A DNA stretch of 64,000 nt from an uncultured Spirochaetales bacterium. Its GTDB lineage: Bacteria; Spirochaetota; Spirochaetia; DSM-27196; DATKUC01. The stretch spans positions 17,864 to 81,863 of the forward strand of contig CAZKMA010000009.1 of the NCBI GenBank assembly GCA_964553615.1, read 5' to 3'. Positions within the stretch are counted from its first letter, which is position 1. Every line of letters starts with the position of its first letter. Both the position numbers and the translations under genes were made by a program. The notes beneath the pieces are model-generated. The model saw only the letters and a program-made list of their open reading frames with translations. It was not told where the DNA came from and did not search any database. This document shows, in pieces, positions 6,178 through 41,998 of the stretch.

Positions 6178-6178
6178 G

Positions 6179-24532: not shown

Positions 24533-27500
24533 TTGGTAAAAGACATGCCAAAAAGCGATGTACAGGTCCATGCCACCGTCGAGCTCGAACTGAGCCCCGA
24601 CGGATCAGAAGCACACGTTCTGATCTCTCGGTCCGAAGGCGGAGAGGCCTGGACGGTAACGCGTATCCTGTCTCTCCTGTCGAGCCGCAACATTACCGGC
24701 ATAGTAACCCGGGACGAAATAGAACGGAAGCTCAAGCTCTTCGAAAACGGCAAGGAACCATCACTCAACATGACCGTCGCCAAAGGGACCCCTCCAACGG
24801 ATCCGTCTCCTGAGCGGCCTGAGTGGACCGACCACGCGGTCCCTGAGCAGATGACCGATATTGCCCGGGACTTCGTGGCCTCTGAACCTCCGCCGGAGAT
24901 AACGACCGAAGTCGTAGAGAAGATCAGACGAAAAAAGCGTGTTTTGAAAAAGTCGCACATCCCCTTCCTGCCTCCGAAAGAGGAAATCGTGGAGGTGGTG
25001 GAGCGACAGGTTCACAACGAACGGGTCTATCTCGATCCGACGGTCGAAGGCTACGGGTGGGTCGATGCGGAACAGAAGGTGGCCGACCTGTTCCCGGGAG
25101 ATCCAGGAACACCCGGCAAAGACGTATTCGGGAAGGCAGTTCCTCCGGCAGCAATCCTGGACGCGGACTACCACACCGGCAGAAATCTCAACAGAAAGCG
25201 CAATGAGTTGTTCAGCGAAACTTCCGGGTTCCTGCGGTACGGGACCAACTGGGCGGACATCATTCCATTCCGCCTTCACCGCTGGGACCTCTATCTCTCG
25301 GACGACAGGGCAACATGCTTTCTCAATCTCGAACCGGGCAGTCTCGAGGCTCCCAGGCCGACTCCGGACGAAATATTCGACGCGGCCGAAAAGCTCTCCT
25401 ATTCCCGTGAGGTACTGCTCGATCCGCAGGAGATAATCGGCCTTATCGATAACACGATTATCCACGGCAACCCGGTGCGGGGCATTTCGCTTTCCCGGAG
25501 CCGGGACGGTCGCGCCGAAGTCACGGTCAGCGAGGACCGGCTCACTGCAGTGCTCTCTGTTCGCAAGAGTCGCGGAAACGGCAAACCGCTCAAACTCCGG
25601 GATATCGGTGCAGCCATTACCGCTGCACGGTTAAAGTCCTTCGACCGTACGCGCGTCCAGAACGACGTTACCGCGTTTTACCGCGGGCCGGACGACGAAC
25701 TTACCGGTTATATCCTTGCCGAGGGAAAGGCCCCGACGAAAGGAAGAGACAGCGTCGTCGAAATTACCGGCCGTTTCTACGATCCGAAAAAAACGGAAGA
25801 GCTGAAGACACGGATCTCGGCCTCGGGGCGCAATGGTGCCATTTCCGGATCACTTGCCGCCGATTTTCCCCCGGATCTCATCGAGACCATGGCGCCGGTC
25901 CAGCCGGAACAGCGGGTCTTCAGTTACTCACAGCCCTTGACGGGCGAACCGGGCATCGACCTCTACGGACAGGCAATACCGGGAATTTCCGGAGACGAAC
26001 CCCGATTCCGGCTCTTCGAAAACGTCACGCAAAAACAGAACGTCATCATTTCCGAAGTGGAAGGTGTCCTCGATGTGGGGAAGGCCGAGGACGGAACCTA
26101 TCTGCTGCGGGTACGTCAGGATTCCGACGCACAGGTAGAGGTCCTGCTGACACCTGATCGCATGCTTGCCACTCTCTCCGTCACCGGCCGGTCGGGCATA
26201 GGACGGACCGCGAACGAAGAGATGATTCGCACGGCGCTTTCCGAAGCGGGCGTGCGCGTTGGAATAGACGAACCCGCGCTGAAGGAAGCAATCATGCAGG
26301 CGGTTACCGGGGAAGAGGTGGTGGATGCCGTCGTTGCGCGAGGTGAAATGCCGATACGCCCCGGACAGCGTGCTCTGCGCTATCTGGTCCCGGTTGCCAA
26401 CAACGCCGGTGTAAGAATCCGGGAAGACGGACGCGCGGACTACAAGAACCAGGATCGCATTACACAGGTAAGCGCAGGCACCGATATTGCCGAGATTATT
26501 CCGCCGCAGGCAGAACCCCGGGATGGTTTCGATGTAACCGGTAAGGTTATTCCCGTGGGCGAGTCGGCAAACTTCGACGCGGAGGTCGGCGCAAACGTGG
26601 CACAAACACTGCGGCCCGACGGCACCATCGTGTTTGTTGCCAAAGCGAACGGCGAGCTTGTCATTGACCGAAACATCATTTCCGTTCGTGCGGTTCATCT
26701 GATAAGGGGCGATGTAGGTCTCAAGACCGGCAATATCCGCTTTCACGGACCGGTTTCCGTTACGGGAAATGTGCGTTCAGGCTTTTTTGTCATGAGCGAT
26801 GGGGAAATTCGCGTTGGCGAAGGAGTCGAAGCGGGGCTGCTCTCCTCAGGAGAAAACATCCTGATACGGCAGGGTATTCGCGGCGGCGGCAAAGCGGTGC
26901 TGCGCACCAAGAAGAACATACTTGCGGCCTTCTGTGAACAGGCAACATTGCTTTCGGTAGGAGACATCGTAATTGACAGAAGCTGCATGCAAAGCCGCGT
27001 CAAATGCAATGGCAGACTCATTCTCACCGGAGAGAAAGGAAACCTGGTAGGAGGTCAGATACAGGCGCGCAACGGGGTTGAGGCGATGAACATCGGTTCG
27101 GATCGGAGTGCACACACCCAGATATCCTTTGGCCAAAACTACCTCATATCCGACCATATCGAGGCCGAGAGCAAGGAGATCGAGAAGCTCAAGGCACGAC
27201 TCGTGCAGGTAGACGGATATCTGAAGACCGCGGAGACACAAGCCCACCGGACAGACGGGCTCGGTCCGGACGCGGGGACCGGGAAGCCTCTATCGGCTCT
27301 GTACCAGGAAAAAACAAAGCTTTTGCGCTCCATTGAGAAACGAAATATGCGTATCTTTATGTTTCGGGAGAAGTTTGAAGAACACTTCGATTCCGCCGTC
27401 CGAGTCCGCGGAACGGTCTTTCCCGGGACGATTCTCGAGAGCCACGGACGAACCCTGGCAGTCTCGACTGCAAAGAAGAACGTTCAGTTCGTCTTTGACA

Positions 27501-27544
27501 CAACGACCGGACGCATCGAAGAGCGGCCGTTGAATAACTCCTGA
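24533..27544 (+). CDS. FapA (DUF342) family protein with repeated N-terminal domains
   Basis: Three D-[GR]x-A-x-[LV] ... A[KER]GxxP repeat units; C-terminal GDVGLKTGNIRFHGPVSVTGNV beta-solenoid and coiled coil. Confidence 0.85.
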   Translation: MVKDMPKSDVQVHATVELELSPDGSEAHVLISRSEGGEAWTVTRILSLLSSRNITGIVTRDEIERKLKLFENGKEPSLNMTVAKGTPPTDPSPERPEWTDHAVPEQMTDIARDFVASEPPPEITTEVVEKIRRKKRVLKKSHIPFLPPKEEIVEVVERQVHNERVYLDPTVEGYGWVDAEQKVADLFPGDPGTPGKDVFGKAVPPAAILDADYHTGRNLNRKRNELFSETSGFLRYGTNWADIIPFRLHRWDLYLSDDRATCFLNLEPGSLEAPRPTPDEIFDAAEKLSYSREVLLDPQEIIGLIDNTIIHGNPVRGISLSRSRDGRAEVTVSEDRLTAVLSVRKSRGNGKPLKLRDIGAAITAARLKSFDRTRVQNDVTAFYRGPDDELTGYILAEGKAPTKGRDSVVEITGRFYDPKKTEELKTRISASGRNGAISGSLAADFPPDLIETMAPVQPEQRVFSYSQPLTGEPGIDLYGQAIPGISGDEPRFRLFENVTQKQNVIISEVEGVLDVGKAEDGTYLLRVRQDSDAQVEVLLTPDRMLATLSVTGRSGIGRTANEEMIRTALSEAGVRVGIDEPALKEAIMQAVTGEEVVDAVVARGEMPIRPGQRALRYLVPVANNAGVRIREDGRADYKNQDRITQVSAGTDIAEIIPPQAEPRDGFDVTGKVIPVGESANFDAEVGANVAQTLRPDGTIVFVAKANGELVIDRNIISVRAVHLIRGDVGLKTGNIRFHGPVSVTGNVRSGFFVMSDGEIRVGEGVEAGLLSSGENILIRQGIRGGGKAVLRTKKNILAAFCEQATLLSVGDIVIDRSCMQSRVKCNGRLILTGEKGNLVGGQIQARNGVEAMNIGSDRSAHTQISFGQNYLISDHIEAESKEIEKLKARLVQVDGYLKTAETQAHRTDGLGPDAGTGKPLSALYQEKTKLLRSIEKRNMRIFMFREKFEEHFDSAVRVRGTVFPGTILESHGRTLAVSTAKKNVQFVFDTTTGRIEERPLNNS

Positions 27545-28578: not shown

Positions 28579-29985
28579 TCAGACCGAGTACCGCGCCTTG
28601 CTCTTGCGAATACGCATCCGGGAGGCGCGAATCTCATCGCCATATGCGGCGAATACACCCGACAACCGGTCGAGCAGGTTCCCGAAACCAAACTCCCTGC
28701 GTGCAATGAGAAAATTCTCTTCCACCATGCGCTTCCGTTCTTCCGGATGCGTAAGCACGTATTCCATTGCCTCGAGAACATGGTCTTCGATTACGAGGCG
28801 ACCGTCTTCGTCGTACCGATCACGGATTTCTATGTTGTGCAGTCCGGTAACCGCTATGTCGGTCTTATAGACCAGGTAGGTGGTAATGACCACCGGCACG
28901 CGTGCCGCAAGAGCTTCGAGTAAAGCATTTCCGAACCCTTCCCAGATTGGAAGATAGGTTACGAGATCCGCGTTTGCCAGAACGTCGCGGTTGGTGTACA
29001 TCTTCTGTTCGCCTGCATCGCCCGTCGTGATTCCCCGGACGGAGCCGACGCGATCCGCAATGAAATGGGCGTTGACCCCAAGCTCCGCGGCGAGCTGTTT
29101 TATCTCTTCGACGTAGTTCTCGTCCGGTTCATCTCCCTGGTAAAGCGAGATAATGTAGTGCAAACGGTCGCGGTACTTCGGATACCGGTCCGCAAAACGA
29201 CCGACCAGACGCACCGAATCTTCAATGCGCTTTCTGCGAACTACACGCGTCGGCTGAACAATGAGAATGTCATCGCCGCGAAAGCCAAGATCCTTGCGAA
29301 AGGTCGAATTGTACTCGTCGAGTACGACCGGATCATCGAAATCCTCGCAGTTTGGTACAACGTGCGGCTGAACCCGCTTCAGCGAGCTCAGGATATGCGC
29401 CGCGTAGGAAGAGATGACAACATGCTCCAGGCCCAGATCCACCGGGGGCATAATGCGTGTAAGGAGTGATTCGATATGTGAGTTGCTGAACCTGCTGCGT
29501 TCCCACCAGAAGTCGTGGTGATGGAAGATTGTGGCAACCCGCTTCTCGGTTGCCAGGTGGTACAGACCAATGCCCCCGAGAAGGGTCATCGGCATTGCGT
29601 TCGTGTTCTCTCCAATCAGAACATCGATACCGTTGTCCTGGACGTATCGGTGGATCAGATCGCCCACCTCCTGCCCTGCTGCCATCATCTCCTCGACCAG
29701 TTCGTCCCGGGAGTTCTGATTGTCCCGCGGCGGAATACGCGACAGGAAGGGAAAGAAGCGGCGTTCATAAAGAATCTGCTGCTCGGAACCGAAGCGGATC
29801 CCGGGAACGAGGAATTGCTGACTTGCGGGAACATTCTCCACCGGGCTTCGATAGTAACCGGCAATGGTGTGAACCTGGTGCCCCATCTGGTTCAGAGCGG
29901 CAATCCACTTGTTCACTTCGAGAGATACACCGTCCACATCGCCCAGTTTTCCGCTGACGAATCCAATACGAAAGTTGTCTGCCAT
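28579..29985 (-). CDS. GT4 glycosyltransferase, mannosylglucosylglycerate synthase (MggS)-like
   Basis: DGVSLEVNKW, HHHDFWWER, QPTRVVRRKRIE, ADLVTYLPIWEGFGNALLEA, recalled as matching Thermotogae MggS. Confidence 0.8.
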   Translation of the reverse strand: MADNFRIGFVSGKLGDVDGVSLEVNKWIAALNQMGHQVHTIAGYYRSPVENVPASQQFLVPGIRFGSEQQILYERRFFPFLSRIPPRDNQNSRDELVEEMMAAGQEVGDLIHRYVQDNGIDVLIGENTNAMPMTLLGGIGLYHLATEKRVATIFHHHDFWWERSRFSNSHIESLLTRIMPPVDLGLEHVVISSYAAHILSSLKRVQPHVVPNCEDFDDPVVLDEYNSTFRKDLGFRGDDILIVQPTRVVRRKRIEDSVRLVGRFADRYPKYRDRLHYIISLYQGDEPDENYVEEIKQLAAELGVNAHFIADRVGSVRGITTGDAGEQKMYTNRDVLANADLVTYLPIWEGFGNALLEALAARVPVVITTYLVYKTDIAVTGLHNIEIRDRYDEDGRLVIEDHVLEAMEYVLTHPEERKRMVEENFLIARREFGFGNLLDRLSGVFAAYGDEIRASRMRIRKSKARYSV

Positions 29986-30045
29986 GGTACGTACCTCATA
30001 CACAAGATATGTCCATGGAGAAAGGGTTTCAACCGCGCGGAGTCG

Positions 30046-31932
30046 TTACCCGATCAACGCTTCCTCATAATCCTGAATCGAGCCGTTGTTCAGGCACACA
30101 TCGATGATCCTGCGGCCGACCGGATGAAGTTCGTCGGTATAGAATTGCCTCAACTCGCGATGGAAAAAATTCCGCAGGATCTCGGCGCCGGCGTCATAGC
30201 CGTCATTACCCACCTCGAGCTGTTCATTCACTCGAAGCATTCCCTTCGGGATGGTCTGGCCATCCACCCGAAGCGAAGGAAGGGCATACCCGAGCAGCGC
30301 AAGACGGGATTCCATGAGCTGTCCCGGGCGAAACCGAACACTCCCGCGACGGGCAATGTATTCGCGCGCAATCCACTCTGGTTTGAACCCCACTTTGAAG
30401 GCCCCGATGTACTGGTTGGGAATGAGCACAAACTTCGTGCTCGGCGTGGCGATAATCTGCTCGAGCAGGAGATTCGCCTGACGAACCATCTTCCCGGTTG
30501 CGAACGGCCAGTAGGAGCCGACCCCTTCGCTCACGAGTCCCTCGCCGGACACGATGCTCGGATTCGAATGACCGCGGGGAGCGACAAGTCGCCAGACCCA
30601 GCCGAGCGCAGGCGGCAGAATGTGCAGCATGCCAATGATGCCGTAGTTCGGTTCCTCTCGCGTACACGGAGGCGTACGGACTCCAAAACTCCGCACGTCG
30701 ACCTCGACCGGTCCGTCCAGGACGTTCGGTACGAAGTGGCGGGGCATGATTACTCGCGGATTCGGACATTTTTTCCCGGGTGCGTCCAGCGTGTGGTCCC
30801 AGATAAGCACGGTTGAACCGGGAACACCATCCAGGTTCAGGAAGATGAGCGGTTCCGGCGGTGATATGGTCAGCTTCTCGAGCTGCGGCTCGGTGCCGTA
30901 TTCTGCAAGGTGGTCAACGCGCAGAAACCAGCCCGCCTCGGCGTCTTCGACTACCAGTTTTCTGCTGTTGCGCTGAAGCGCCGGCGGTGCCAGCGCCATA
31001 TCGTCGGTAATCGGCTGCAGTTCACAGGTATCGTTCATTTCAATGAAGAGCTTTTCATTCGTAACTGTGTTCTCACCGAGCAGGATGCGTCCGTCCGTCT
31101 CCCGGTGGATTGCCTGCGTCATTTCACTCTTTCCGCCGCCACTTGCCCCTTCGTGGAGAATGACAAACTCGTTATCGTAGGGAGTAATCAGCTTCACTGC
31201 CGCGCTGTGCAGGGTAACCCATCCCTCCTGCTCACCAAGAGTCAGAAGGATGCCGTATACGCCCTTCTTGGCACTCGGACCGGGATAGAGGTTGTAGGAA
31301 AAGAGCTCGTGCATACCGGCCAGACGATTGTGAATGACCACCTGTTTTCCGTCAAAATGAGTGTGCCGGAACGGCGGGGCAACGTAGATGACCGCACGCG
31401 GCTCAAAACCGTCAGGAATATCGTCCCGGGGAATGAACCCCTGGAGGTCCGCCATGGCCGCCACGAAAAATCCTGCATTTGCCGGAGCAACAATGAGCGT
31501 CGGATAGCCATGCGTCATATCTCCGGAAAGAAACGGCATGACAATGAGGGGCTGCTCGGAAAGCCACTTGAAAGTTTCCGCGCGCACCGAGTCGAAGCCA
31601 TCACCGAACCGTTCGGTATACCGGGTCTTGTCGGTCGGCAGATCATCAGCAATGACCATAGCTTCGGGATCGCGCCGACGCATGTACACCTCGGTGTAGT
31701 TCACTGCAAAGCCATTCTTGCATCGTGCAACGGTCGCCTCGACAACCCGCCCCTTTCCGGACACTTCGTAGGCCACCTCGCAGCCGCTGCTCTCGGGATC
31801 CATGCAGACAAGATTCAGGAGATGATTGCGGCTTTCCGGTACGATAACTTCAGTCTGCGAGATGATCCGCTCGAGGTCTCGAGGAAGCTTGCACTTGTCC
31901 AGCACTATGTTGCCCAATAGCGTGTCCTTCAT
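30046..31932 (-). CDS. DUF4914 family protein (PEP-carboxykinase-like P-loop fold)
   Basis: YPGPSAKKGVYG, WVTLH, HEGASGGGKSE, ITDD, CPNPRV. Confidence 0.8.
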   Translation of the reverse strand: MKDTLLGNIVLDKCKLPRDLERIISQTEVIVPESRNHLLNLVCMDPESSGCEVAYEVSGKGRVVEATVARCKNGFAVNYTEVYMRRRDPEAMVIADDLPTDKTRYTERFGDGFDSVRAETFKWLSEQPLIVMPFLSGDMTHGYPTLIVAPANAGFFVAAMADLQGFIPRDDIPDGFEPRAVIYVAPPFRHTHFDGKQVVIHNRLAGMHELFSYNLYPGPSAKKGVYGILLTLGEQEGWVTLHSAAVKLITPYDNEFVILHEGASGGGKSEMTQAIHRETDGRILLGENTVTNEKLFIEMNDTCELQPITDDMALAPPALQRNSRKLVVEDAEAGWFLRVDHLAEYGTEPQLEKLTISPPEPLIFLNLDGVPGSTVLIWDHTLDAPGKKCPNPRVIMPRHFVPNVLDGPVEVDVRSFGVRTPPCTREEPNYGIIGMLHILPPALGWVWRLVAPRGHSNPSIVSGEGLVSEGVGSYWPFATGKMVRQANLLLEQIIATPSTKFVLIPNQYIGAFKVGFKPEWIAREYIARRGSVRFRPGQLMESRLALLGYALPSLRVDGQTIPKGMLRVNEQLEVGNDGYDAGAEILRNFFHRELRQFYTDELHPVGRRIIDVCLNNGSIQDYEEALIG

Positions 31933-32274: not shown

Positions 32275-33225
32275 CTAGGGGCCCGCGGCACCCGCGAGGA
32301 GAGTCTTCGCCATAGTCTCCAGGTTGGAGAGCACGTCCGGGGCAAGGGGGTTGATGACCAGCATCCTGACGCCGAGCGCCTCGGCAATCCGTTTGGCGGT
32401 TGTCTCTGAAAACTCGGGTTCCACGAACACAGCACGTACATGCGCTGCACGCGCGCGCCGGATAAGGTCCTGCATTTCACGGGGCCCCGGATTCTTGCCG
32501 TTTTGTTCAATGGCAAGTTCTTCTATTCCGTAGGTGTCGGTAAAATACCCAAATGCGGGGTGAAACACCAGAATGGAGGAGCCACGAAGCGGCGCAAGCA
32601 TGACCTTGAGCCGGCCATCCAGTGCGTGCAGCCGCGCCACGAGTGCATTGTAGTTCGCCGTGAACGTATCCGCCATTCCGGGAACCTCCGAAACCAGTGC
32701 GTCCCGGATCGTCTTCATCTGGATAGCGAGCTCTCGCGGTCCGAGCCAGATGTGCGGATCGAACCCTTCGACCGCCGGTGAGTTTGCAGTCACGACCATG
32801 TGCTGTCTTCCGTCGGGCGAACGGAGTGTCACTCCCACGCGCGTGTCAACAACCCGGAGATCGGGCACATTCGCCTCCACCCTGGGGAGAAATGCGTCTT
32901 CAAACGGCATGCCGATGCGGAAGTAAAGCCGGGCGTGCGCAACTTCGCTTATCTGCCGCGGAGTCGGCTCGTACGTGTGCGGTTCCCTTCCCGGCGGTAC
33001 CATGACCCCGACCCGCACACCGGTGCCTCCGATCTGGCTTACAAGGTACTCCTGCGGAAGAATACTCACCATCACATTGAGCGGCTGCACCGTCCCACCG
33101 GGGCCGGAAGTGGTATCTCGCTTTCCTCCGGTTCGCTCGGCCGAACCGCCCGCGCAGGCAGCGCCCGCAACTGCAACAAACAGGATAATGCCCGCCGTTA
33201 ATACTCGACCCTTCGCTCGAATCAC
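32275..33225 (-). CDS. znuA: Zn/Mn ABC transporter substrate-binding lipoprotein
   Basis: Lipobox AGAAC, PPGREPHTYEP, DPHIWL, VFHPAFGYF, EQNGKNP. Confidence 0.9.
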   Translation of the reverse strand: MIRAKGRVLTAGIILFVAVAGAACAGGSAERTGGKRDTTSGPGGTVQPLNVMVSILPQEYLVSQIGGTGVRVGVMVPPGREPHTYEPTPRQISEVAHARLYFRIGMPFEDAFLPRVEANVPDLRVVDTRVGVTLRSPDGRQHMVVTANSPAVEGFDPHIWLGPRELAIQMKTIRDALVSEVPGMADTFTANYNALVARLHALDGRLKVMLAPLRGSSILVFHPAFGYFTDTYGIEELAIEQNGKNPGPREMQDLIRRARAAHVRAVFVEPEFSETTAKRIAEALGVRMLVINPLAPDVLSNLETMAKTLLAGAAGP

Positions 33226-33241
33226 TCTTCCCTCCAGAATC

Positions 33242-33283
33242 TTGCCACTTCGTATTACTCTGTATTACATTATGGGTACTAAC
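33242..33283 (+). promoter_or_regulatory. Promoter/operator between znuA and the RHH gene, with GTATTAC direct repeats
   Basis: TTGCCA-18-TACATT. GTATTAC at 33252-33258 and 33262-33268 (10-bp period); degenerate GTACTAA at 33276. Confidence 0.55.
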
Positions 33284-33314
33284 GGAGCACCTCCTCCGTC
33301 AAGAGGGAATTTGT

Positions 33315-33584
33315 ATGGCAAAGAAAGATGAGGTAATTACGTTCAAGGTAGATGATGCGCTTGCACGTGAACTCGCCGGAATCTCGAACCGATCGGAGTT
33401 CATCCGGGCGGCTATTCTGCGCGCCCTGGAAAACACGTGCCCGTTGTGCGGCGGAGTCGGTATTCTTACCCCGGACCAGAAACGGCATTGGGAAAGTTTC
33501 GCTGAACATCACAGCGTCCAGAAATGCAACGACTGCGAAGCGAATTATCTGGTCTGCGACGCCGGAAATGAAGGAGAAACCTGA
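33315..33584 (+). CDS. Ribbon-helix-helix (CopG/MetJ-like) regulator with a Cys/His-rich C-terminal domain
   Basis: VITFKVDDALARELAGISNRSEFIRAAILRAL (RHH pattern) followed by CPLC-x15-H-x6-HH-x4-CNDC-x6-C. Stop overlaps the znuC start. Confidence 0.85.
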   Translation: MAKKDEVITFKVDDALARELAGISNRSEFIRAAILRALENTCPLCGGVGILTPDQKRHWESFAEHHSVQKCNDCEANYLVCDAGNEGET

Positions 33585-34363
33585 TGAATGAACCGGTGGC
33601 GGCCATCAGCTTCGACTCGGTGAGTTTCAGATACCCGGAGATTTCCGTTCTGGAAAATGCAACGTTCGAAATTGCACCGAGGGACTTCGTCTCAATAATC
33701 GGGCCGAACGGCGGCGGAAAGACCACGCTCGCGCGGCTCATCCTCGGGCTCGTAGAACCCGCTTCAGGAACCATACGGGTCTTCGGCAAGTCACCGCAGG
33801 CGGCCCGTCATAAGATTGGCTACGTTCCGCAGTACACCTCCTTCGATCTGAGTTTTCCCGTGACCATCCGGGATGTCGTGCTCATGGGGCGTGTCCGGAA
33901 TCGACCCGGACTTCATCGCCGTGCCGATTTCGAGGCTGCCGAGCAGGCGCTGTCGGAAGTGGGCATGGTCGATCTTCGCAATCGACCGTTCTCTGAGCTC
34001 TCCGGTGGACAACGGCAGCGGGTACTCATTGCACGGGCGCTTTCAGCCGGCCCGGAAATTCTCCTGCTGGATGAGCCGACGGCAAACGTGGACGTCGCGG
34101 TGGAAAACCAGGTCAACGGCCTGCTCAGAAGGCTCAATGAGACGCTCACAGTGCTCCTCATCACGCACGATCTCGGATTCGTCAGTGAGCTGGTGAATCG
34201 CCTGGTGTGTGTGAATCACTACGTGAAGGTACATCCGACAACCGAGGTAACTCCTGAGATGATCAAGGAGCTGTACGGCGGCCATGTGCTCCGCGTAGAA
34301 CACGGGAAAGGCGACCCGCGTACAATAGACGTCCGCAACGTCCCCTCCCCATCAACCAAATAA
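33584..34363 (+). CDS. znuC: Zn/Mn ABC transporter ATP-binding protein
   Basis: GPNGGGKT, GYVPQ, LSGGQRQR, LLLDEP, ITHD. Confidence 0.92.
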   Translation: MNEPVAAISFDSVSFRYPEISVLENATFEIAPRDFVSIIGPNGGGKTTLARLILGLVEPASGTIRVFGKSPQAARHKIGYVPQYTSFDLSFPVTIRDVVLMGRVRNRPGLHRRADFEAAEQALSEVGMVDLRNRPFSELSGGQRQRVLIARALSAGPEILLLDEPTANVDVAVENQVNGLLRRLNETLTVLLITHDLGFVSELVNRLVCVNHYVKVHPTTEVTPEMIKELYGGHVLRVEHGKGDPRTIDVRNVPSPSTK

Positions 34364-34376
34364 GGACAGGACATCT

Positions 34377-35285
34377 ATGGGCCAGTTTTTTTCCGCGCTC
34401 TCCGATCCCTCGATACCCTTCATCCGGTATGCACTGTTCGCAGGGCTTATCTCCAGCGTCGCCTTCGGTGTCATCGGAAGCTACGTCGTTGTAAAACGGA
34501 TCAGCTACATCGCCGGTGCCATCTCGCATTCGGTTCTGGCCGGCATCGGACTGAGTCTCTACCTGAAGAGCCGCTACGGTCTTGCCTGGTTCAGCCCCAT
34601 GCTCGGGGCCGTCATCACCGCGGTTCTCGCTGCGGTCATCATCGGCTCGGTCAGCATATATGCCCGGGAACGGGAAGACACGGTCATCGGCGCCATCTGG
34701 AGCCTCGGGATGGCCGTGGGGGTGCTCTTCATCGCCGGGACAAAGGGGTTCGTTGACCCGATGAGCTACCTGTTCGGGAACATACTATTGGTTACGAAAG
34801 GCGATCTTCTGCTCATTGCCGTTCTCGATGGTATCGTCGTTCTCATCGGTATCCTGTTCTACAACCAGCTCCTGGCCGTCACCTTCGACGAGGAGTTTAC
34901 CACCGCGCGCGGCGTTCCTTCCGGCTTTTACTACATGCTGCTGCTCATTCTCGCCGCCCTCGCTATCGTGCTTCTGGTAACCATTGTGGGAATTGTCATG
35001 CTCATTGCGCTTTTTACCATCCCGGCGGCAATTTCCGGCATGTTTGCACGCCGCCTGTGGCAGATGATGATTGCATCGACACTGCTGACCATGGTTTTCA
35101 CCACGGCCGGGCTCGGGCTGAGCTATCTCACCAACATGCCGAGCGGGTCGGTCATCATCGTCTTCGCCGGCTCCGCCTATCTCCTTGCCACGGTGGCGAA
35201 AAACGTCTCACGCCGGATCCGCGCACGAAGCCAGGGAAACCGGCACGATGGTGGGCAGCGCGGTGCGCGCACTGAAGCAATCTGA
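34377..35285 (+). CDS. znuB: Zn/Mn ABC transporter permease
   Basis: AGAISHSVLAGI, REDTVIG, SYLFGNILLV, TFDEEF, VGIVMLIAL. Confidence 0.92.
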   Translation: MGQFFSALSDPSIPFIRYALFAGLISSVAFGVIGSYVVVKRISYIAGAISHSVLAGIGLSLYLKSRYGLAWFSPMLGAVITAVLAAVIIGSVSIYAREREDTVIGAIWSLGMAVGVLFIAGTKGFVDPMSYLFGNILLVTKGDLLLIAVLDGIVVLIGILFYNQLLAVTFDEEFTTARGVPSGFYYMLLLILAALAIVLLVTIVGIVMLIALFTIPAAISGMFARRLWQMMIASTLLTMVFTTAGLGLSYLTNMPSGSVIIVFAGSAYLLATVAKNVSRRIRARSQGNRHDGGQRGARTEAI

Positions 35286-35546
35286 AGCAGGGCGGCCGAC
35301 CCGGATGTCCCCAATTCCGGACTAATTGCGCAGCAACATCGTATAAAACGGGCATGGGCGCGCCGCGTCGGCAGGCGCGCGAAAGCATTCCAGTTCACGT
35401 TACTGCGTGAAAAAGAGAATTGCTGCCAATTGCGAACTCTCATTGTGTGCAAAACCCAAAAATGATATAGTGCAGAGTACATAAATTCCTTATGCAGGAC
35501 GATGTAATAAAGTGTAGCAATAGTTGAGTGTAGGGAATCAACGGGT

Positions 35547-36776
35547 ATGACGTCAGAAATTAAGAAACTTCGGGACATTATCAGCCTCGATTCTGAACTG
35601 AACAAGATACAGGATGTCGATATCCTGCTTGAACGCATATTGCTCGAAGCCCGCCGCGTAGTGAACGCGGATGCAGGATCCATCTATGTCAAACGGGGCG
35701 AAGAGCTCATTATCACGTACGCGCAGAACGACACCAAGCAGAAAGAGCTGCCTCCCGGCGAAAAGCTCATCTACAACATCTTCACCGTCCCGATCAACGA
35801 GAAGACCATTTCAGGCTACTCTGCAGCAACGGGGAAGGCCGTCAACGTGGAGGATGTCTATGATCTTTCCGATGATGCGCCCTACGGATACAGCACCAGT
35901 TTTGACCGAATTTCCGGGTACCGTTCTCAGTCGATGCTTGCAATCCCGCTCAAATCGAATACCGGTGAAATACTTGGCGTTATCCAGATGATCAACGCGA
36001 TGGACGAAAACAATTCCGTCGTTCCGTTCAGCAAGGACGACGAGATGGTGATTACCCACTTCGCAGCCAACGCCACCGTGGCGCTTCAGCGTGCGCAGAT
36101 GACGCGCGCCATCCTGCTGCGCATGATCATGATGGCGGAATTGCGGGACCCAAAGGAGACCGGTCCGCACGTCAACCGCGTTGCCGGTTACTCGGTGGAG
36201 ATCTACGAGCGCTGGGCGCACAAACAGCGCCTCGGGGAAACTGAAGTCCAGAAGACTCGCGACAATCTCCGTATGGCGGCGATGCTTCACGATGTCGGGA
36301 AAGTCGCCATTTCAGATATCATCCTGAAGAAACCCGGACGCTTCACCGACGATGAATACTCAATCATGAAGTCCCACACCTGGGTTGGCGCCTGTCTGTT
36401 TGTGAACAAGCAGTCGGAGTTTGACGAAATCGCCCAGCTTGTGGCGCTGAATCACCACGAGAACTGGGACGGAACCGGCTACCCCGGTCACATCGACATT
36501 GAAACCGGTTTGCCGACCCGTACGGACAAAGACGGCAAGCCTCTCGGCAAGAAGGGAGAGGAAATCCCGCTCTTCGGCCGTATCGTTTCCATTGCGGATG
36601 TGTACGACGCTCTCAGCTCACACCGCGTGTACAAGGAAGCGTGGACCGAAGAAAAAGTGCTCGAAGAGATGCGTCAGATGGCAGGGACCAAGTTCGATCC
36701 GGACCTGCTCGACGCATTCTTCGAAGCGCTGCCGTCTATCAGAACCATCGCACAGAAATACGCCGACGAGACGTAA
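35547..36776 (+). CDS. GAF + HD-GYP cyclic-dinucleotide phosphodiesterase
   Basis: N-terminal GAF; ETGPHVNRV, LHDVGK, HHENWDGTGYP, RIVSIADVYDAL. Confidence 0.93.
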   Translation: MTSEIKKLRDIISLDSELNKIQDVDILLERILLEARRVVNADAGSIYVKRGEELIITYAQNDTKQKELPPGEKLIYNIFTVPINEKTISGYSAATGKAVNVEDVYDLSDDAPYGYSTSFDRISGYRSQSMLAIPLKSNTGEILGVIQMINAMDENNSVVPFSKDDEMVITHFAANATVALQRAQMTRAILLRMIMMAELRDPKETGPHVNRVAGYSVEIYERWAHKQRLGETEVQKTRDNLRMAAMLHDVGKVAISDIILKKPGRFTDDEYSIMKSHTWVGACLFVNKQSEFDEIAQLVALNHHENWDGTGYPGHIDIETGLPTRTDKDGKPLGKKGEEIPLFGRIVSIADVYDALSSHRVYKEAWTEEKVLEEMRQMAGTKFDPDLLDAFFEALPSIRTIAQKYADET

Positions 36777-36808: not shown

Positions 36809-38206
36809 TCAGGCGTCCTTGTACGCGGCAACCAGCTGCTCTACGGCAGCCTTTCCGTCTCCAAAAAACATGAGCGTATTGTCGGCAGCAAACAGCGGAT
36901 TCGGTATTCCTGCAAAACCGGGGCTCAGACTCCGCTTTATCACAACAACCGTGCGCGCCTTGTCCACATCGAGTATCGGCATGCCCGCTATGGGAGTGCC
37001 GGAGGCCTGACGCGCAACCGGATTCACGACATCGTTCGCTCCAATCACAATTACCATGTCGGTGTTCGCGAATGTGGGGTTGATCTGATCCATCTCCCGA
37101 AGTTGCTCGTACGGGATATTCTCTTCGGCAAGAAGCACATTCATGTGACCGGGCATTCGACCCGCTACCGGATGAATTCCGAACTCTACCTCAATTCCGT
37201 CACGTTCAAGCAGCTCGGTGAGCTGCCGCACGGCGGTCTGAGCACGCGCCACCGCCATGCCGTATCCGGGAACCACGACCACACGCCTGCATGTCTTGAG
37301 AATAAGGGCAATTTCCTCGGGTGAAGAAGACTTCACTTTCCCTGCATAGACATCCTCGACGCCGGCGTCGTCCTCTATGACGGAGCCGACACCGCCGAAG
37401 AGAACGTTTGCGAGCGAACGGTTCATAGCCCGGCACATGATTCGGGTCAGAATGATGCCTGACGCACCCACCAGCGATCCGGCTATAATGAGAACGGTGT
37501 TGTTGAGCACAAATCCTGTTGCCGCCGCGGCGATTCCTGAGTAGGAGTTCAGGAGAGCAACGACAATCGGCATGTCTGCCCCGCCTATGGCAATGACAAG
37601 AAGCACACCCAGCACCGAAGAAACCGCAACGAGCAGCCAGTACAGATCCGTCCTGGCCGGCTCAATTACAACCCAGACTGCAACCCCGATGGAAGCGATT
37701 CCGACAAGAAGTTTTATGATCTGTTCACCGCGATAGCGAAGCGGCTTCTCGGTCATGACACCCTGCAGTTTCGCGAACGCGATAAGGCTTCCCCAGAAGG
37801 TAACTGCTCCGATCAGACCGGAAGCGACCGTTGCCACCGTGAACTGCGGCCCTGGTAACGCTTTACCTTCGGTTGTCACCGTCTGAATGAGTACGGCTCC
37901 GGCCACAAGAACCGATGCGGCACCGCCGAGACCGTTGAACAGCCCGACGAGCTGCGGCATTGCGGTCATCTGGATTTTGAGCGCAAGCACAATTCCAATG
38001 AGTGTTCCCGCGACCAGGCCGATGATGATAACCGGAAAGCCGACAATGTGCCGATCCATGAGCGTCACAATGACTGCCAGAAACATTCCAAGCGCGCCGA
38101 GCAGGTTTCCGCGCGCCGCAGTCCTCGGATGACTCAATCCCTTCAGGCCGACGATAAAGAGAACGGCAGCAATCAGGTACACAACGAGTGTTACTGTCTG
38201 GTTCAC
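36809..38206 (-). CDS. pntB: NAD(P) transhydrogenase beta subunit
   Basis: MPQLVGLFNGLGG, GGADMP, LNSYSG, PGYGMAVA, HPVAGRMPGHMNVLLAE, GANDVVNP. Confidence 0.97.
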   Translation of the reverse strand: MNQTVTLVVYLIAAVLFIVGLKGLSHPRTAARGNLLGALGMFLAVIVTLMDRHIVGFPVIIIGLVAGTLIGIVLALKIQMTAMPQLVGLFNGLGGAASVLVAGAVLIQTVTTEGKALPGPQFTVATVASGLIGAVTFWGSLIAFAKLQGVMTEKPLRYRGEQIIKLLVGIASIGVAVWVVIEPARTDLYWLLVAVSSVLGVLLVIAIGGADMPIVVALLNSYSGIAAAATGFVLNNTVLIIAGSLVGASGIILTRIMCRAMNRSLANVLFGGVGSVIEDDAGVEDVYAGKVKSSSPEEIALILKTCRRVVVVPGYGMAVARAQTAVRQLTELLERDGIEVEFGIHPVAGRMPGHMNVLLAEENIPYEQLREMDQINPTFANTDMVIVIGANDVVNPVARQASGTPIAGMPILDVDKARTVVVIKRSLSPGFAGIPNPLFAADNTLMFFGDGKAAVEQLVAAYKDA

Positions 38207-38210
38207 TGCA

Positions 38211-38498
38211 TTACCCCTTCTTCGACGATCGTCGGAACTTGTCGAGCATCCGGTGGGTCACCAGAAATCCGCCAACCACATTTATGGTTGCGAAGATGAT
38301 GGCCGCGAGTCCGAGCAGAGTGGTAAGCTGCGTGTGCCGGGTGCCGGCGCTCAGGATTGCACCGATGAGAGTAATGCCGGAGATCGCATTCGACCCCGAC
38401 ATGAGCGGCGTGTGCAGAATCGGAGGAACCTTCGTAATGACTTCAAACCCAACGAAAACCGCAAGAACAAATATGGTAATGGCACTGATCAGGGTCAT
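38211..38498 (-). CDS. pntA: NAD(P) transhydrogenase alpha subunit part 2 (membrane)
   Basis: LHTPLMSGSNAISG, INVVGGFLVTHRML. Confidence 0.95.
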   Translation of the reverse strand: MTLISAITIFVLAVFVGFEVITKVPPILHTPLMSGSNAISGITLIGAILSAGTRHTQLTTLLGLAAIIFATINVVGGFLVTHRMLDKFRRSSKKG

Positions 38499-38507
38499 GA
38501 ATATCTC

Positions 38508-39674
38508 CTAAAGCCCGAGCGTCCGTCGCATGGATTCATTCGGTACCTGGCCGTCATGCGTCACCAGGGTGGCGCTCACAATTTCATCCGTCAGGTCCGG
38601 AAGAAACTGCCCGTCTTTTGTCATCGAAAGCAGGAAGGTCGCTATGTTGCGGGCATAGAGTTGACTGGCGGTATGAGCCAGGGTGGAGACGAGATTCGCA
38701 GGACCGAGAATTTTCACGCCGTGATGCTCCACGGTCTGCCCGCTCCTGGTGAGCTCGCAGTTACCGCCGCGCTCGGCGGCCAGATCGACAATCACCGAAC
38801 CCGGCGTCATCCGCTCCACCATCTCGGCGGTAATGAGAACCGGAGCCTTTCGCCCCGGAACCGATGCGGTAGTTATTACCACATCCGATTCGGCGAGTAT
38901 TCCGCCCATGAGCTCCTGTTGCCGCGTGTAGAACTCTTCTCCCATCTCCCGCGCGTATCCTCCCGCCCCTCCCGCGTCACTCGTGTCCAGCTCCATCTCG
39001 ATGAATCGCGCTCCAAGGCTTGCAACCTGCTCTTTCACCTCCGAACGCACATCGTAGGCGCTCACAACGCCGCCAAGCCGTCGCGCCGTGGCTATTGCCT
39101 GCAGGCCCGCGACCCCTGCACCCACAATGAAAATACGTGCCGGAACCACGGTTCCGGCGGCGGTCATCATCATTGGGAGCATCCGTGGAAGCGCGTCTGC
39201 TCCGACAAGCACCGCCTTGTAGCCTGAAAGGTTTGCCATCGAGGAAAGCGCATCCATGCTCTGCGCACGCGTTATCCGCGGCATGAGCTCCATTGAGAAC
39301 GACGTGATCCGCCCGTCCTTCATGACACGGAATGAACTGTCCGGCGCATATGGCTCAAGAAAGCCAATGACCGCCTGCCCCGCGCGCATGCGCGACTCCC
39401 GGATTGAGCCGCGGGCCGCCGATTCCGCCGAACCGGCTGCGGCAGCCGCTCTGACGCAAAGCAATACGTCGGCCTCGCTCAGCACTGCATCTTCTGTCTG
39501 GAGAACTCGAACACCACGTTCTTCATATGCGGAGTCCGGGTAGCCGGCCGGGTCTCCGGCACCGCGCTCCATGATCAGGGCACACCCCGCCTTCGTCAGG
39601 GCGGGTACCTGGGCAGGCACCATAGCCACCCTTCGCTCGCCCGCGGCAATCTCCCGAAAAAATCCAACTGTCAT
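38508..39674 (-). CDS. pntA: NAD(P) transhydrogenase alpha subunit part 1 (domain I)
   Basis: ERRVAMVP, PRITRAQSMDALSS, GAGVAGLQA, DLAAERGGN. ATG 39674 overlaps the upstream TGA (ATGA). Confidence 0.95.
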   Translation of the reverse strand: MTVGFFREIAAGERRVAMVPAQVPALTKAGCALIMERGAGDPAGYPDSAYEERGVRVLQTEDAVLSEADVLLCVRAAAAAGSAESAARGSIRESRMRAGQAVIGFLEPYAPDSSFRVMKDGRITSFSMELMPRITRAQSMDALSSMANLSGYKAVLVGADALPRMLPMMMTAAGTVVPARIFIVGAGVAGLQAIATARRLGGVVSAYDVRSEVKEQVASLGARFIEMELDTSDAGGAGGYAREMGEEFYTRQQELMGGILAESDVVITTASVPGRKAPVLITAEMVERMTPGSVIVDLAAERGGNCELTRSGQTVEHHGVKILGPANLVSTLAHTASQLYARNIATFLLSMTKDGQFLPDLTDEIVSATLVTHDGQVPNESMRRTLGL

Positions 39675-41224
39675 CCGTTCCTCCACGATTCAGGATGTCT
39701 GTTCACATCCTTCTGTACGAGCGCCGCAGCGATGCCACCCGAGAGAATAGCAAGCGGCATGCCGCCTCCGGGATGAACGCTCCCGCCGCAGAGATAGAGC
39801 CCCGGATAACGACGGGATCGGTTCGGGTGACGGAGAAACGCCGCGAGCGTGCTGTTCGAGCTTATTCCGTACAGACTTCCCCGGTACGACCCGGTACGTT
39901 CAGCAATCTGACCGGGATGCATCGTCTGCTCGAAAACGATCTCCCGGTCGATCCGACGGCCCAGCGCCGAACAGAGCGTATTAAGAACTCGCGGACGCAG
40001 CCTCGCCACCTCGTCGTCCCAGTCCTGACCGGAATCGTAGGGCGTATTGATCAGCACGAACCAGTTCTCGCCGCCTGTCGGCGCGTCAGCCGGGTTCACC
40101 TTCGACGTAATGTTCACATAGACCGTCGGATCCTCCGGCACTGTGACCGCACGAAAGATCTGATCGAACTCGTTCCGGTAGTCCGATGAGAAAAAGATAT
40201 TGTTTACCGACAGTTCCGGAAAGGCCGAACGCATACCCCAGTAGAAGACAATCCCGGAAGAGGAGGATTCGAGCCGTTCATACCGTTTCAGAAGCGGAGC
40301 TTCCGCGTCAACGAGCAGATTACGATAGGTCAGGGTCACATCGACATTGGAGATGACGATACCGTACGGCCGGAACTCTCCGCCAATGCGGATTCCCCGT
40401 ATCGTCCGCGTTCGGCGCATGCCGCTTTTTCCGCCCGGCGTGCCATATTCTATCCTTTCAACGTCGGCTCCGAAGTGAAACCGGACACCGAGCTCGCGGG
40501 CAAGGCGCTCGAGGGCGAGCGGAATTGATCGTATGCCGTCGGCCATCGCATATCCGCCAAGACCGTATTCAACGTGAGGAATGATGTTGAGCGTTGCTGG
40601 CGTCAGGTACGGGCTCGATCCATTGTAGGTGGCGTATCGGTCAAAGAGCTGTCGTATCTTCGGACTTTGAAAGAACGAGCGGTTGGCTGCATCCATGGTC
40701 CGCAGCGGATCTATTCGGAAAATTCGACTCAGTGACTTCCAGAAGAGCGCCGAGCCATAGGTGGACGAATCATGCAGGCTGTGCCTGAGAAAGAGGTCCC
40801 CGGCAACTTCGTAGATCCGTTTGCTGTAGGCGAGATACCGGGCAAGGTGCGCCGCAGGCTCCCCGGTCTTCGACTGGATCTCCCTGCCGAAACGGTCCGG
40901 TTCGAAGAATGCGTCGAGCGTTGTGGAATCCGGGTAGAAGTACCTGCAGATGACCGGAAGCGGAACAAAGGAGAGATACTCTTCGGCCCGCCTGCCGACG
41001 GAAGAGAAGAGATCGTCAAAGACGTCCTTCATGGTAACCAGGGACGGCCCGGTGTCGAATCGGAAACCCGATTCGGTCAGAGTGCCGGCCTTTCCGCCCA
41101 CACTATCCGAGCGTTCGTACAAATCAACCGCGAAACCTGTCGCAGCGAGCCTGATTGCGGCGGAGAGTCCGCCGAGTCCTGCTCCGATGACGGCGACGTT
41201 CGGAAGATGCGCCTCACCGTTCAT
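39671..41224 (-). CDS. Phytoene desaturase family FAD oxidoreductase (CrtI/CrtD-like)
   Basis: IGAGLGGLSAA, GGKAG, FRFDTGPSL, YATYNGSSP, GSLYG, LCGGSVHPGGGMPL. Confidence 0.9.
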   Translation of the reverse strand: MNGEAHLPNVAVIGAGLGGLSAAIRLAATGFAVDLYERSDSVGGKAGTLTESGFRFDTGPSLVTMKDVFDDLFSSVGRRAEEYLSFVPLPVICRYFYPDSTTLDAFFEPDRFGREIQSKTGEPAAHLARYLAYSKRIYEVAGDLFLRHSLHDSSTYGSALFWKSLSRIFRIDPLRTMDAANRSFFQSPKIRQLFDRYATYNGSSPYLTPATLNIIPHVEYGLGGYAMADGIRSIPLALERLARELGVRFHFGADVERIEYGTPGGKSGMRRTRTIRGIRIGGEFRPYGIVISNVDVTLTYRNLLVDAEAPLLKRYERLESSSSGIVFYWGMRSAFPELSVNNIFFSSDYRNEFDQIFRAVTVPEDPTVYVNITSKVNPADAPTGGENWFVLINTPYDSGQDWDDEVARLRPRVLNTLCSALGRRIDREIVFEQTMHPGQIAERTGSYRGSLYGISSNSTLAAFLRHPNRSRRYPGLYLCGGSVHPGGGMPLAILSGGIAAALVQKDVNRHPESWRNG

Positions 41225-41299
41225 TGCGCGCACCGGAAACACGAGTCGAAGTGAGACGTTGTGAACATGGCGACACGGTAGCCTCCGCCTGCAGGAAAG

Positions 41300-41998
41300 T
41301 CAAACTGGAACGGTCGGAATACGACTCCCGTCAAAGCGGGAACGCAACAGAATGTGGACAAGGAAGTTGCCTGAGATGAGAGAAAAGCTGTAGAAGAAAT
41401 CCTCGAGAGGGATGGTATAGACGCGCACTCCCCAGATGTGTCCGGATGAATACAGGACAACAGGTACCGCCGTCAGTACGCCGTTTGCCGCAAGAAACGG
41501 CACGTAGCAAATTCCGGCAGCCACCCAGAACCAGCTTGACATGAGTACATGCGGCGCAACAGCCGCTGCAACGAGGAAAAAAACACCGCAGACGACAAGA
41601 GCGGTCAGGGTGTATGGCTGGGAATAGAAAACGAGCCCGGCGGCAACGAAGGCCATCCCAAGTATGGCAGCAAGCCAGGACGGCATGAAAACGCCCCGTT
41701 CAGGCACGTATGCCCTGACAACCTCGTATACGAACAGACACGCGTACGGCACCGTAACGAAGAAGAGTATTTCCTCGAGCGGCAGACCCCAGATACGAAG
41801 TCGACCGGTATGCTCGACGCTGAAGTGCCAGTCGCCTCTTCTGGTGGCAAATACGTCCCAGACAACGAAAACCGCACCGACAACGAGAATCGCACTGAAG
41901 ACTGAAGGCCACCTCTTGTAGAAGGCGACCTTTCGGTCGAACGACAGGACCAGGGGAAAAAACAGCACCGCCAGATCGAGTACCAGATAAAGACTCAT
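41300..41998 (-). CDS. Lycopene cyclase, fused CrtYc/CrtYd membrane type
   Basis: Two repeats: WDVFA...GLPLEEILFFVTVPYAC and ANGVLT...TIPLEDFFY. Confidence 0.85.
   Translation of the reverse strand: MSLYLVLDLAVLFFPLVLSFDRKVAFYKRWPSVFSAILVVGAVFVVWDVFATRRGDWHFSVEHTGRLRIWGLPLEEILFFVTVPYACLFVYEVVRAYVPERGVFMPSWLAAILGMAFVAAGLVFYSQPYTLTALVVCGVFFLVAAAVAPHVLMSSWFWVAAGICYVPFLAANGVLTAVPVVLYSSGHIWGVRVYTIPLEDFFYSFSLISGNFLVHILLRSRFDGSRIPTVPV

Follow-up and report, generated by a model that had tools for sequence, protein, structure and literature searches.

A ribbon-helix-helix protein with a Cys/His domain as a candidate zinc-responsive regulator of Znu-type transporter operons

Background

Control of zinc uptake in bacteria is credited to Zur, AdcR and a few other regulators. 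In a stretch of 64,000 nucleotides from an uncultured Spirochaetales bacterium (GenBank assembly GCA_964553615.1, contig CAZKMA010000009.1, positions 17,864 to 81,863 of the forward strand), here called the window, the genes of a Znu-type ABC transporter are accompanied by a gene for a protein of 89 residues. An earlier note on this DNA had proposed that the small protein, hereafter the regulator, is a compact metalloregulator with an N-terminal ribbon-helix-helix (RHH) and a Cys/His metal site, and had named it a candidate "non-Zur" zinc sensor. Comparison of the gene with its relatives leads us to consider it probable that its product is a zinc-responsive repressor which also controls its own gene and belongs to a family not described before. 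The binding of this protein to its DNA site, zinc as its effector, its ligand residues and the polarity of its response are all features that we infer from comparative data.

Organization of the locus

The regulator gene (33315–33584, forward strand), which was called as an open reading frame (ORF), is the first gene of an operon and specifies the protein MAKKDEVITFKVDDALARELAGISNRSEFIRAAILRALENTCPLCGGVGILTPDQKRHWESFAEHHSVQKCNDCEANYLVCDAGNEGET, the N-terminus of which begins MAKKDEVITFKVDD. Its TGA stop codon (33582–33584) overlaps by one base the ATG of the gene for an ABC transporter ATPase of the ZnuC/AztA type (33584–34363, forward strand), to which it is translationally coupled. The ATPase carries the Pfam ABC_tran domain and, in NCBIfam, matches AztA, MntA and ZnuC, each under its cut-off. 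It is followed by an ABC-3 permease of the ZnuB/AztB type (34377–35285, forward strand; Pfam ABC-3, E = 3.9e-61). A ZnuA-type binding protein with a lipoprotein-like signal peptide (Pfam ZnuA, E = 1.2e-59) is encoded divergently (32275–33225, reverse strand), and an intergenic region of 89 bp (33226–33314), which holds the predicted operator described below, separates the start codons of this gene and the regulator gene. The layout reported in the earlier note, a gene of 89 residues divergent from znuA and coupled to znuC, was therefore confirmed, and its reading of the protein as an RHH N-terminus followed by a tail with CPLC, H, HH, CNDC and C stands as described.

The same note had stated that no Zur/Fur or DtxR/TroR gene lies in the locus. 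In agreement with this, none of the large ORFs from 23.4 to 43.4 kb of the window was assigned by Pfam to the Fur or DtxR family, and a weak test with an E. coli Fur probe showed nothing credible as a Fur-like gene in the whole 64 kb. Control by a riboswitch was rejected, since an Rfam scan of positions 32900–33900 matched no RNA element. A CCTCC...GAGGG hairpin with a terminator-like score (33286–33307) overlaps the Shine-Dalgarno sequence of the regulator gene and is not conserved in loci L001 and L002, the closest relatives of the window.

Gene neighbourhood and metal specificity

The surroundings of the gene were compared in the 80 best loci, in which relatives of the binding protein, ATPase and permease of the window were located by tblastn. 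A Znu-type ABC transporter adjoins the regulator gene in 64 of them, nearly always directly downstream. In 43 of these 64 loci the genes for the regulator, binding protein, ATPase and permease follow one another in this order on one strand; eight have the regulator with ATPase and permease downstream and no match to the binding protein, and two are doubtful, having weak ATPase matches only. The same operon was recovered from independent gene calls on a 1.4-Mb Planctomycetaceae contig, where the stop codon of the regulator overlaps the start of ZnuA. Ten Spirochaetota loci that lack the transporter possess instead a COG0523 GTPase gene (cobW and CobW_C domains) immediately downstream, upstream or divergent; genes of this type are characteristic members, indeed a hallmark, of Zur regulons. 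One further locus is cut by the end of its contig. The association with metal transporters first noticed in the window is thus shared by most of these homologues.

This conservation bears on the possibility that the protein is an RHH antitoxin, or a regulator of plasmid or phage origin, and a mere chance neighbour of the transporter. Antitoxins are common among RHH proteins of such a length, and a single member of the family matched Plasmid_stab_B; nevertheless, there is no toxin partner, the transporter order is kept in the 64 loci across phyla, and the gene is coupled to znuC. The antitoxin reading, to which we attach a negligible probability, was rejected on the absence of a toxin partner and the conserved neighbourhood.

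The transporter itself looks zinc-specific, judging from its binding protein. The best solved relative of the protein in the window is the zinc-specific ZnuA of Synechocystis (1PQ4, 2OV1; E = 1e-45), and the His-containing motifs PHTYEP, DPHIWL and VFHP are all conserved in this alignment. Of 55 binding proteins encoded next to regulator genes, every one has His as its third ligand and 43 show the full combination His-His-His; binding proteins for Mn or Fe have Glu at the third position. These data argue against a repressor that senses another metal (Mn, Fe, Ni or Co) carried by this cluster A-I ABC transporter. The scores of the transporter parts against the NCBIfam models for Mn (MntA, MntC) and Zn (AztA, AztC) are similar, all below their cut-offs, and so leave room for another metal, but neither the invariant His, never replaced by the Glu of Mn/Fe binders, nor the solved ZnuA nor the linkage to COG0523, which also points to zinc, fits such a sensor, and we hold it to be very improbable.

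Predicted operator and promoter

Alignment by eye of the upstream regions first disclosed a 17-bp consensus, GTAWTAC-N3-GTAWTAC, which we regard as the predicted operator of the regulator. The site in the window, GTATTACTCTGTATTAC (33252–33268), is exact and comprises two 7-bp palindromes with a period of 10 bp. An automated repeat scan missed the two 7-mers at the thresholds used; they were found through the comparison of loci. The 250 bp upstream of the regulator start were then scanned in 79 loci for the motif GTAWTAM-N3-GTAWTAM, one mismatch being allowed. It was present in 66, mostly 33–67 bp from the start codon, and four further loci have the operator at two mismatches. Elsewhere in the same loci there were eight sites in 780,256 bp, which corresponds to an upstream enrichment of roughly 300-fold. 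Two of the eight precede transporter genes that do not lie downstream of the regulator (L057, L080) and two precede a gene for a GAF-HD-GYP protein in the closest relatives of the window (L001 7645, L002 7984). When up to two mismatches are allowed, the 64 kb of the window contain this operator and no other, against an expectation of 0.08 matches.

Position counts showed hardly any variation at G1, T2, A3, T5 and A6 or at the corresponding bases of the second repeat, and the three spacer bases are A/T-rich. Each 7-mer is palindromic around a central A/T, and the distance of 10 bp places both on one face of the helix. The central bases of the two 7-mers are AA in 23 operators, AT in 19, TA in 15 and TT in 8; because all four combinations occur, a direct arrangement of the repeats is indistinguishable from an inverted one.

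A single sigma-70-like promoter was located in the intergenic region (33242–33271, forward strand), with TTGCCA at 33242–33247, an 18-nt spacer and TACATT at 33266–33271; shuffled sequences give 0.2 sites. The operator fills the spacer of this promoter and the first three bases of its -10 hexamer. A TTGACA-like hexamer ends no more than 16 nt upstream of the operator in 19 of the 66 loci. On the opposite strand the operator comes directly after a CATAAT hexamer (read by eye), 27 bp before the start codon of znuA, and from the position of this hexamer one operator could serve both divergent promoters.

Fur-family boxes are inverted repeats of the 7-1-7 or 9-1-9 type, and known Zur boxes hold a GTAATnATTAC core, while two cooperating dimers on half-sites about one turn apart are the typical geometry of RHH repressors. 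The promoter site of the window, with its two 7-bp palindromes 10 bp apart, has the RHH-type layout and not that of a Zur box. Membership of the regulator in the Zur/Fur family was rejected as well, as neither Pfam nor NCBIfam gave a FUR match and the operator is not of the 7-1-7/9-1-9 kind.

The site might still be bound by a different regulator, for example a Zur encoded elsewhere, with the small protein being a chaperone, buffer or transporter accessory induced by zinc starvation. Like a Fur-family box, the consensus is self-complementary; His and Cys are abundant in the protein, at least two His being present in the C-terminal tail of 40 of 169 members; and one locus, L073, has a Fur-family gene. 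This alternative is quite improbable in our estimation, because the site has neither the spacing nor the core of a Zur box, most members of the family match the RHH_1 model (see below), and the site remains constant across about 11 phyla in step with the invariant strand of the RHH, the strand and loop residues of which are as invariant as the operator. Moreover, the operator also stands before the regulator in loci that lack a neighbouring zinc gene (L007 and, at two mismatches, L008).

The GAF-HD-GYP gene

Downstream of the transporter the window encodes a GAF-HD-GYP protein (35547–36776, forward strand) with Pfam GAF and HD_5/HD domains and the motif HHENWDGTGYP. A degenerate operator-like site, GTAATAAAGTGTAGCAA (35504–35520), lies 27 nt upstream of this gene and is a doubtful member of the set of operators. 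L001 and L002 have a good copy of the operator, GTAATAAAGAGTAATAT, at this place; that of the window has decayed. In about 10 Spirochaetota loci a relative of the GAF-HD-GYP protein is encoded after the transporter or after the regulator gene, in about eight of them directly after the regulator. It is possible that the protein is a lineage-specific member of the regulon in spirochaetes, and through it zinc status may be linked to turnover of cyclic di-GMP (c-di-GMP).

DNA-binding module

The RHH module spans residues 6–39 (33330–33431, forward strand) and is composed of the strand ITFKVD, a helix at 14–21, the loop N25-R26-S27 and a second helix at 26–39. Pfam RHH_1 matches residues 9–39 of the window protein (E = 6.5e-4) with 20.0 bits against a curated cut-off of 20.5, a match that we call borderline as it falls 0.5 bit short; 95 of 121 relatives match the model at E <= 0.01, the best at 5.3e-5. 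The NCBIfam model for the archaeal RHH family aCcr1 gives the window protein a sub-threshold score of 26 bits (cut-off 60). An AlphaFold2 (AF2) monomer model was built from 121 aligned sequences, with a mean predicted local distance difference test score (pLDDT) of 84.7, and replaces an earlier run on 30 sequences which had reached 65.6. Both helices are modelled at pLDDT > 90; residues 6–13 are extended, as expected for an RHH, the strand of which forms only in the dimer.

The invariant N25-R26-S27 turn fits the G/N-x-S/T turn that is a feature of RHH proteins. Of the residues of the module, F10, K11, N25, S27, F29, I30 and R31 are each kept in at least 174 of 179 full-length members, and D13 and R26 are also invariant in the family alignment. 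Using hhalign, the RHH of E. coli NikR was aligned with a probability of 82% (E = 1.1e-5, 38% identity over 37 columns). This alignment ends with the RHH and there was no match to NikR_C at E <= 1, so that membership in NikR was rejected. In protein P0122 (185 residues) two modules, each an RHH with its Cys/His domain, are naturally fused in tandem, so that the protein is in effect a single-chain dimer; this fusion and the palindromic 7-bp half-sites fit an obligate RHH dimer. Protein P0136 looks like a fragment of a P0122-like tandem protein. Taking the model and the alignments together, the regulator appears to possess the structural features of the RHH superfamily, the Pfam score of the window member being marginal.

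C-terminal domain and sister family

The Cys/His domain occupies residues 40–86 (33432–33572, forward strand) and includes C42-P-L-C45, H58, H65-H66, C71-N-D-C74 and C81. Among 179 full-length members the ligand-type residues are kept as follows: C42 in 178, C45 in 179, H58 in 170, H66 in 171, C71 in 178, C74 in 176 and C81 in 171, so that five Cys and two His are conserved at 95–100%. G47 (178), G49 (179) and W59 (164) are likewise retained. In the AF2 model a CPxCxGxG knuckle at C42/C45 is followed by a helix at 53–62 carrying H58 and W59, a hairpin (66–70/77–81) and a short helix (82–86). The turn of the hairpin holds C71-x-x-C74, and H66 and C81 are located at its opposite outer ends, with H58 on the preceding helix. 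Going by this modelled secondary structure, H66 and C81, at the two ends of one hairpin, could face each other.

Searches with the tail gave weak matches only. In Pfam the window protein matched Lar, DnaJ_CXXCXGXG (16.2 bits versus a cut-off of 32.7) and Anti-TRAP (12.9 versus 32), and 49 of 121 members matched DnaJ_CXXCXGXG weakly. Foldseek of the AF2 model against the PDB returned no structural neighbour, no match being under E = 0.9; the redox-switch zinc domain of Hsp33 was among the nearest weak ones. Sequence searches of the PDB, whether by the family profile or by the RHH segment only, were uninformative, the matches being to anti-TRAP (E = 0.014) and a flagellin (E = 0.95). Assignment to the DnaJ/anti-TRAP zinc domains was rejected, as the scores are below the cut-offs and only one CxxCxGxG motif is present.

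A sister family of 115–150 residues, likewise uncharacterised and mostly from soil metagenomes (L082–L161), was found to keep the RHH, the CPxCxGxG and the second CxxC. It does not have W59, H66 or C81 and carries an extra Cys-rich extension, GGPxYCxxC. In all 35 sister-family metagenome loci longer than 3.5 kb there was no match to Znu or COG0523 genes. Instead, a gene for a pyridoxal phosphate (PLP)-dependent decarboxylase (PF00282) starts a median of 34 bp downstream of the sister gene in 20 loci. Inspection of the regions upstream of the sister genes revealed no GTAWTAC motif and only a promoter-like pattern of GCTTGCG, about 17 nt and TAnACT.

The Cys4 knuckle is most simply seen, from this sequence comparison, as a scaffold common to the superfamily and as a structural zinc site, because the CxxC cysteines also occur in a family without linkage to metal genes. 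H58, W59, H66 and C81 are found only in the branch linked to zinc genes, and are accordingly the best candidates for a regulatory site. The Cys/His metal site proposed earlier must be divided on these grounds: its residues are indeed nearly invariant, but the four CxxC cysteines are more likely structural, and it is H58, H66 and C81 that make the better candidates for sensing.

It is in this domain that the principal competing explanation has its basis, namely that the protein is an RHH autorepressor whose knuckle serves purely for structure or oligomerization, with zinc being sensed elsewhere, another signal (e.g. oxidation of Cys thiols) being sensed, or expression being merely damped. In its favour are the occurrence of the CPxCxGxG Cys4 in the sister family beside a decarboxylase and not beside metal genes, the Hsp33 redox-switch domain among the weak structural matches and the Fur-family gene beside the operon in L073. 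Against it stands the invariance of H58, W59, H66 and C81 in the zinc-gene-linked subfamily alone, and linkage to two kinds of zinc-starvation genes in about 11 phyla is hard to explain if the protein is blind to zinc. We regard this explanation as unlikely.

Proposed zinc-responsive repression

The preferred interpretation remains that of a zinc-responsive repressor, and the following mechanism is proposed for it. Two N-terminal RHH modules would pair as a dimer, the beta-ribbon of which would read one GTAWTAC palindrome, and two such dimers would occupy the two 7-bp sites one helical turn apart at 33252–33268. Once bound, they would cover the spacer and the -10 hexamer of the promoter of regulator, znuC and znuB, and would adjoin the likely start region of the divergent znuA. 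In the C-terminal knuckle of 45 residues, C42, C45, C71 and C74 would hold a structural zinc, while H58, H66 and C81, together with H75 and H78 in most relatives, would form a second, regulatory zinc site. When zinc is sufficient, this site would be filled and the DNA-binding form stabilized, probably via contacts between the dimers, and the operon would be off; when zinc is scarce, the site would empty, the protein would leave the DNA, and transporter and regulator would be made. Zinc would thus act as a co-repressor, as it does with Zur.

Several observations weigh against this interpretation. In a Spirochaetaceae clade (L015, L019, L020 and L044) no operator is recognisable at up to two mismatches. 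The gene order there is COG0523, regulator and HD-GYP, and the strand ITFKVD is unchanged, so that joint variation of strand and operator does not explain the absence of the operator from these loci. Five of the 80 loci have a zinc gene of neither kind near the regulator. Positions 75 and 78, which are His in most relatives, are E75 and Y78 in the window protein, the RHH_1 score of which lies just below the Pfam cut-off. The four best-conserved cysteines are those common to the sister family, with its lack of metal linkage, and the Cys/His signature could consequently be mostly structural.

Finally, L073, from a Planctomycetales metagenome-assembled genome (MAG), has a Fur-family gene directly upstream of the operon of regulator and znuABC. 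The Fur-like ORF (5490–5885), with an HHHH motif and two CxxC, was detected with the E. coli Fur probe; the regulator gene is at 5986–6294 and the 17-bp site is between the two. A Fur-family protein and the regulator can therefore coexist and, given L073, a Zur could be acting at these promoters too. The description "non-Zur" has comparative support in so far as it concerns the regulator, but it does not mean that Zur is absent from the genomes; direct sensing of zinc by the regulator is what we infer from the linkage and the conserved tail.

Comparison with known systems

NikR resembles the regulator in joining an N-terminal RHH to a C-terminal metal domain and in repressing a metal-uptake ABC transporter, that for nickel (nikABCDE), when metal is sufficient. 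The two differ in that the tail of the regulator is a Cys4 knuckle of ~45 residues, compared with a tetramerization domain of ~80 residues with a His3Cys nickel site in NikR. Furthermore, the half-sites of the regulator lie 10 bp apart, as against the 16 bp between those of NikR, and the metal of the regulator is probably zinc. Zur would be the functional analogue, having the same targets, znuABC-type transporters and COG0523 GTPases, and, if our proposal is right, a similar combination of a structural Cys4 zinc with a His/Cys regulatory site and zinc as co-repressor. The regulator, however, has an RHH in place of the winged helix of Zur, a different operator architecture and about half the size.

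Arc, Mnt and CopG are also small, autoregulating RHH proteins; in the promoter two of their dimers bind cooperatively, each to a half-site, with roughly one helical turn between the half-sites, and the operator geometry found here fits this pattern, but those repressors possess neither a metal-binding domain nor a link to metal homeostasis. The C42-P-x-C45-x-G47-x-G49 of the regulator weakly matches the CxxCxGxG zinc knuckles of both DnaJ and anti-TRAP. It differs from them in having a single CxxCxGxG paired with a plain CxxC, surrounded by a helix and a hairpin that have no structural neighbour.

Family distribution

A search of 5.8 billion proteins gave at least 424 relatives with 57–96% identity, none of which bears a Pfam domain; their source names are "hypothetical", "RHH domain-containing" or the generic COG label "metal-responsive CopG/Arc/MetJ". 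At 50% clustering and E <= 1e-3 the family comprises 356 representatives. When one genome per species was scanned, at least 501 species were seen to carry a relative, and these belong to about 11 phyla or groups: Spirochaetota, Planctomycetota, Acidobacteriota, Desulfobacterota, Ignavibacteria, Lentisphaerota/Victivallales, Bacillota, Zixibacteria, Sumerlaeota, Hydrogenedentota and Verrucomicrobiota. Among the matches listed, the closest relatives are from Spirochaetia MAGs and show 77% identity.

No family or solved structure covering the regulator was found in Pfam, NCBIfam or the PDB, and a literature search on RHH/CopG, zinc, znuABC, COG0523 and zinc-ribbon metalloregulators produced no description of it. 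The earlier suggestion that the system is undescribed is consistent with this, none of these sources offering a family that accounts for the regulator. Among the sensors listed in a 2024 Chemical Reviews survey of bacterial metal sensing, NikR is the sole RHH metal sensor (PMC11672702). Very probably, then, this is a new family of metal-responsive uptake repressors, although absence from the literature searched is no proof of non-description.

Other genes of the window

A protein of 628 residues with a DUF4914 domain (30046–31932, reverse strand; 1050 bits to the Pfam model) is encoded next to a family-1 glycosyltransferase (28579–30003). A gene for a ParA/MinD-like ATPase (23387–24529) precedes that of a FapA-type protein (24533–27544, forward strand), which at 1003 residues is unusually long and has four FapA_N matches. 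Genes for the PntB and PntA subunits of transhydrogenase are followed by genes with amine-oxidase-type (phytoene desaturase-like) and lycopene cyclase domains (36809–39686 and 39671–41998, both reverse strand), a set that suggests carotenoid synthesis in this spirochaete.

Conclusions

We judge the chances to be better than even that the regulator of the window is the founding example of an added family of metal sensors, with ~90 residues made up of an RHH and a Cys4 knuckle bearing a His/His/Cys site, and with the operator GTAWTAC-N3-GTAWTAC. Such proteins would control Znu importers and COG0523 metallochaperones, and in spirochaetes perhaps a GAF-HD-GYP c-di-GMP phosphodiesterase, and would in many phyla take the role that belongs to Zur in model bacteria. 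Comparison with the sister family, which has the same scaffold without His/His/Cys, is a natural way to study how a scaffold acquires a sensing site. If the proposal is true, annotation pipelines would gain a regulator family and an operator motif for the prediction of regulons, and the very small pair of sensor and operator would be directly testable and reusable as a zinc biosensor. It would also fill a gap in our understanding of zinc regulation in about 11 mostly environmental and poorly cultured phyla.

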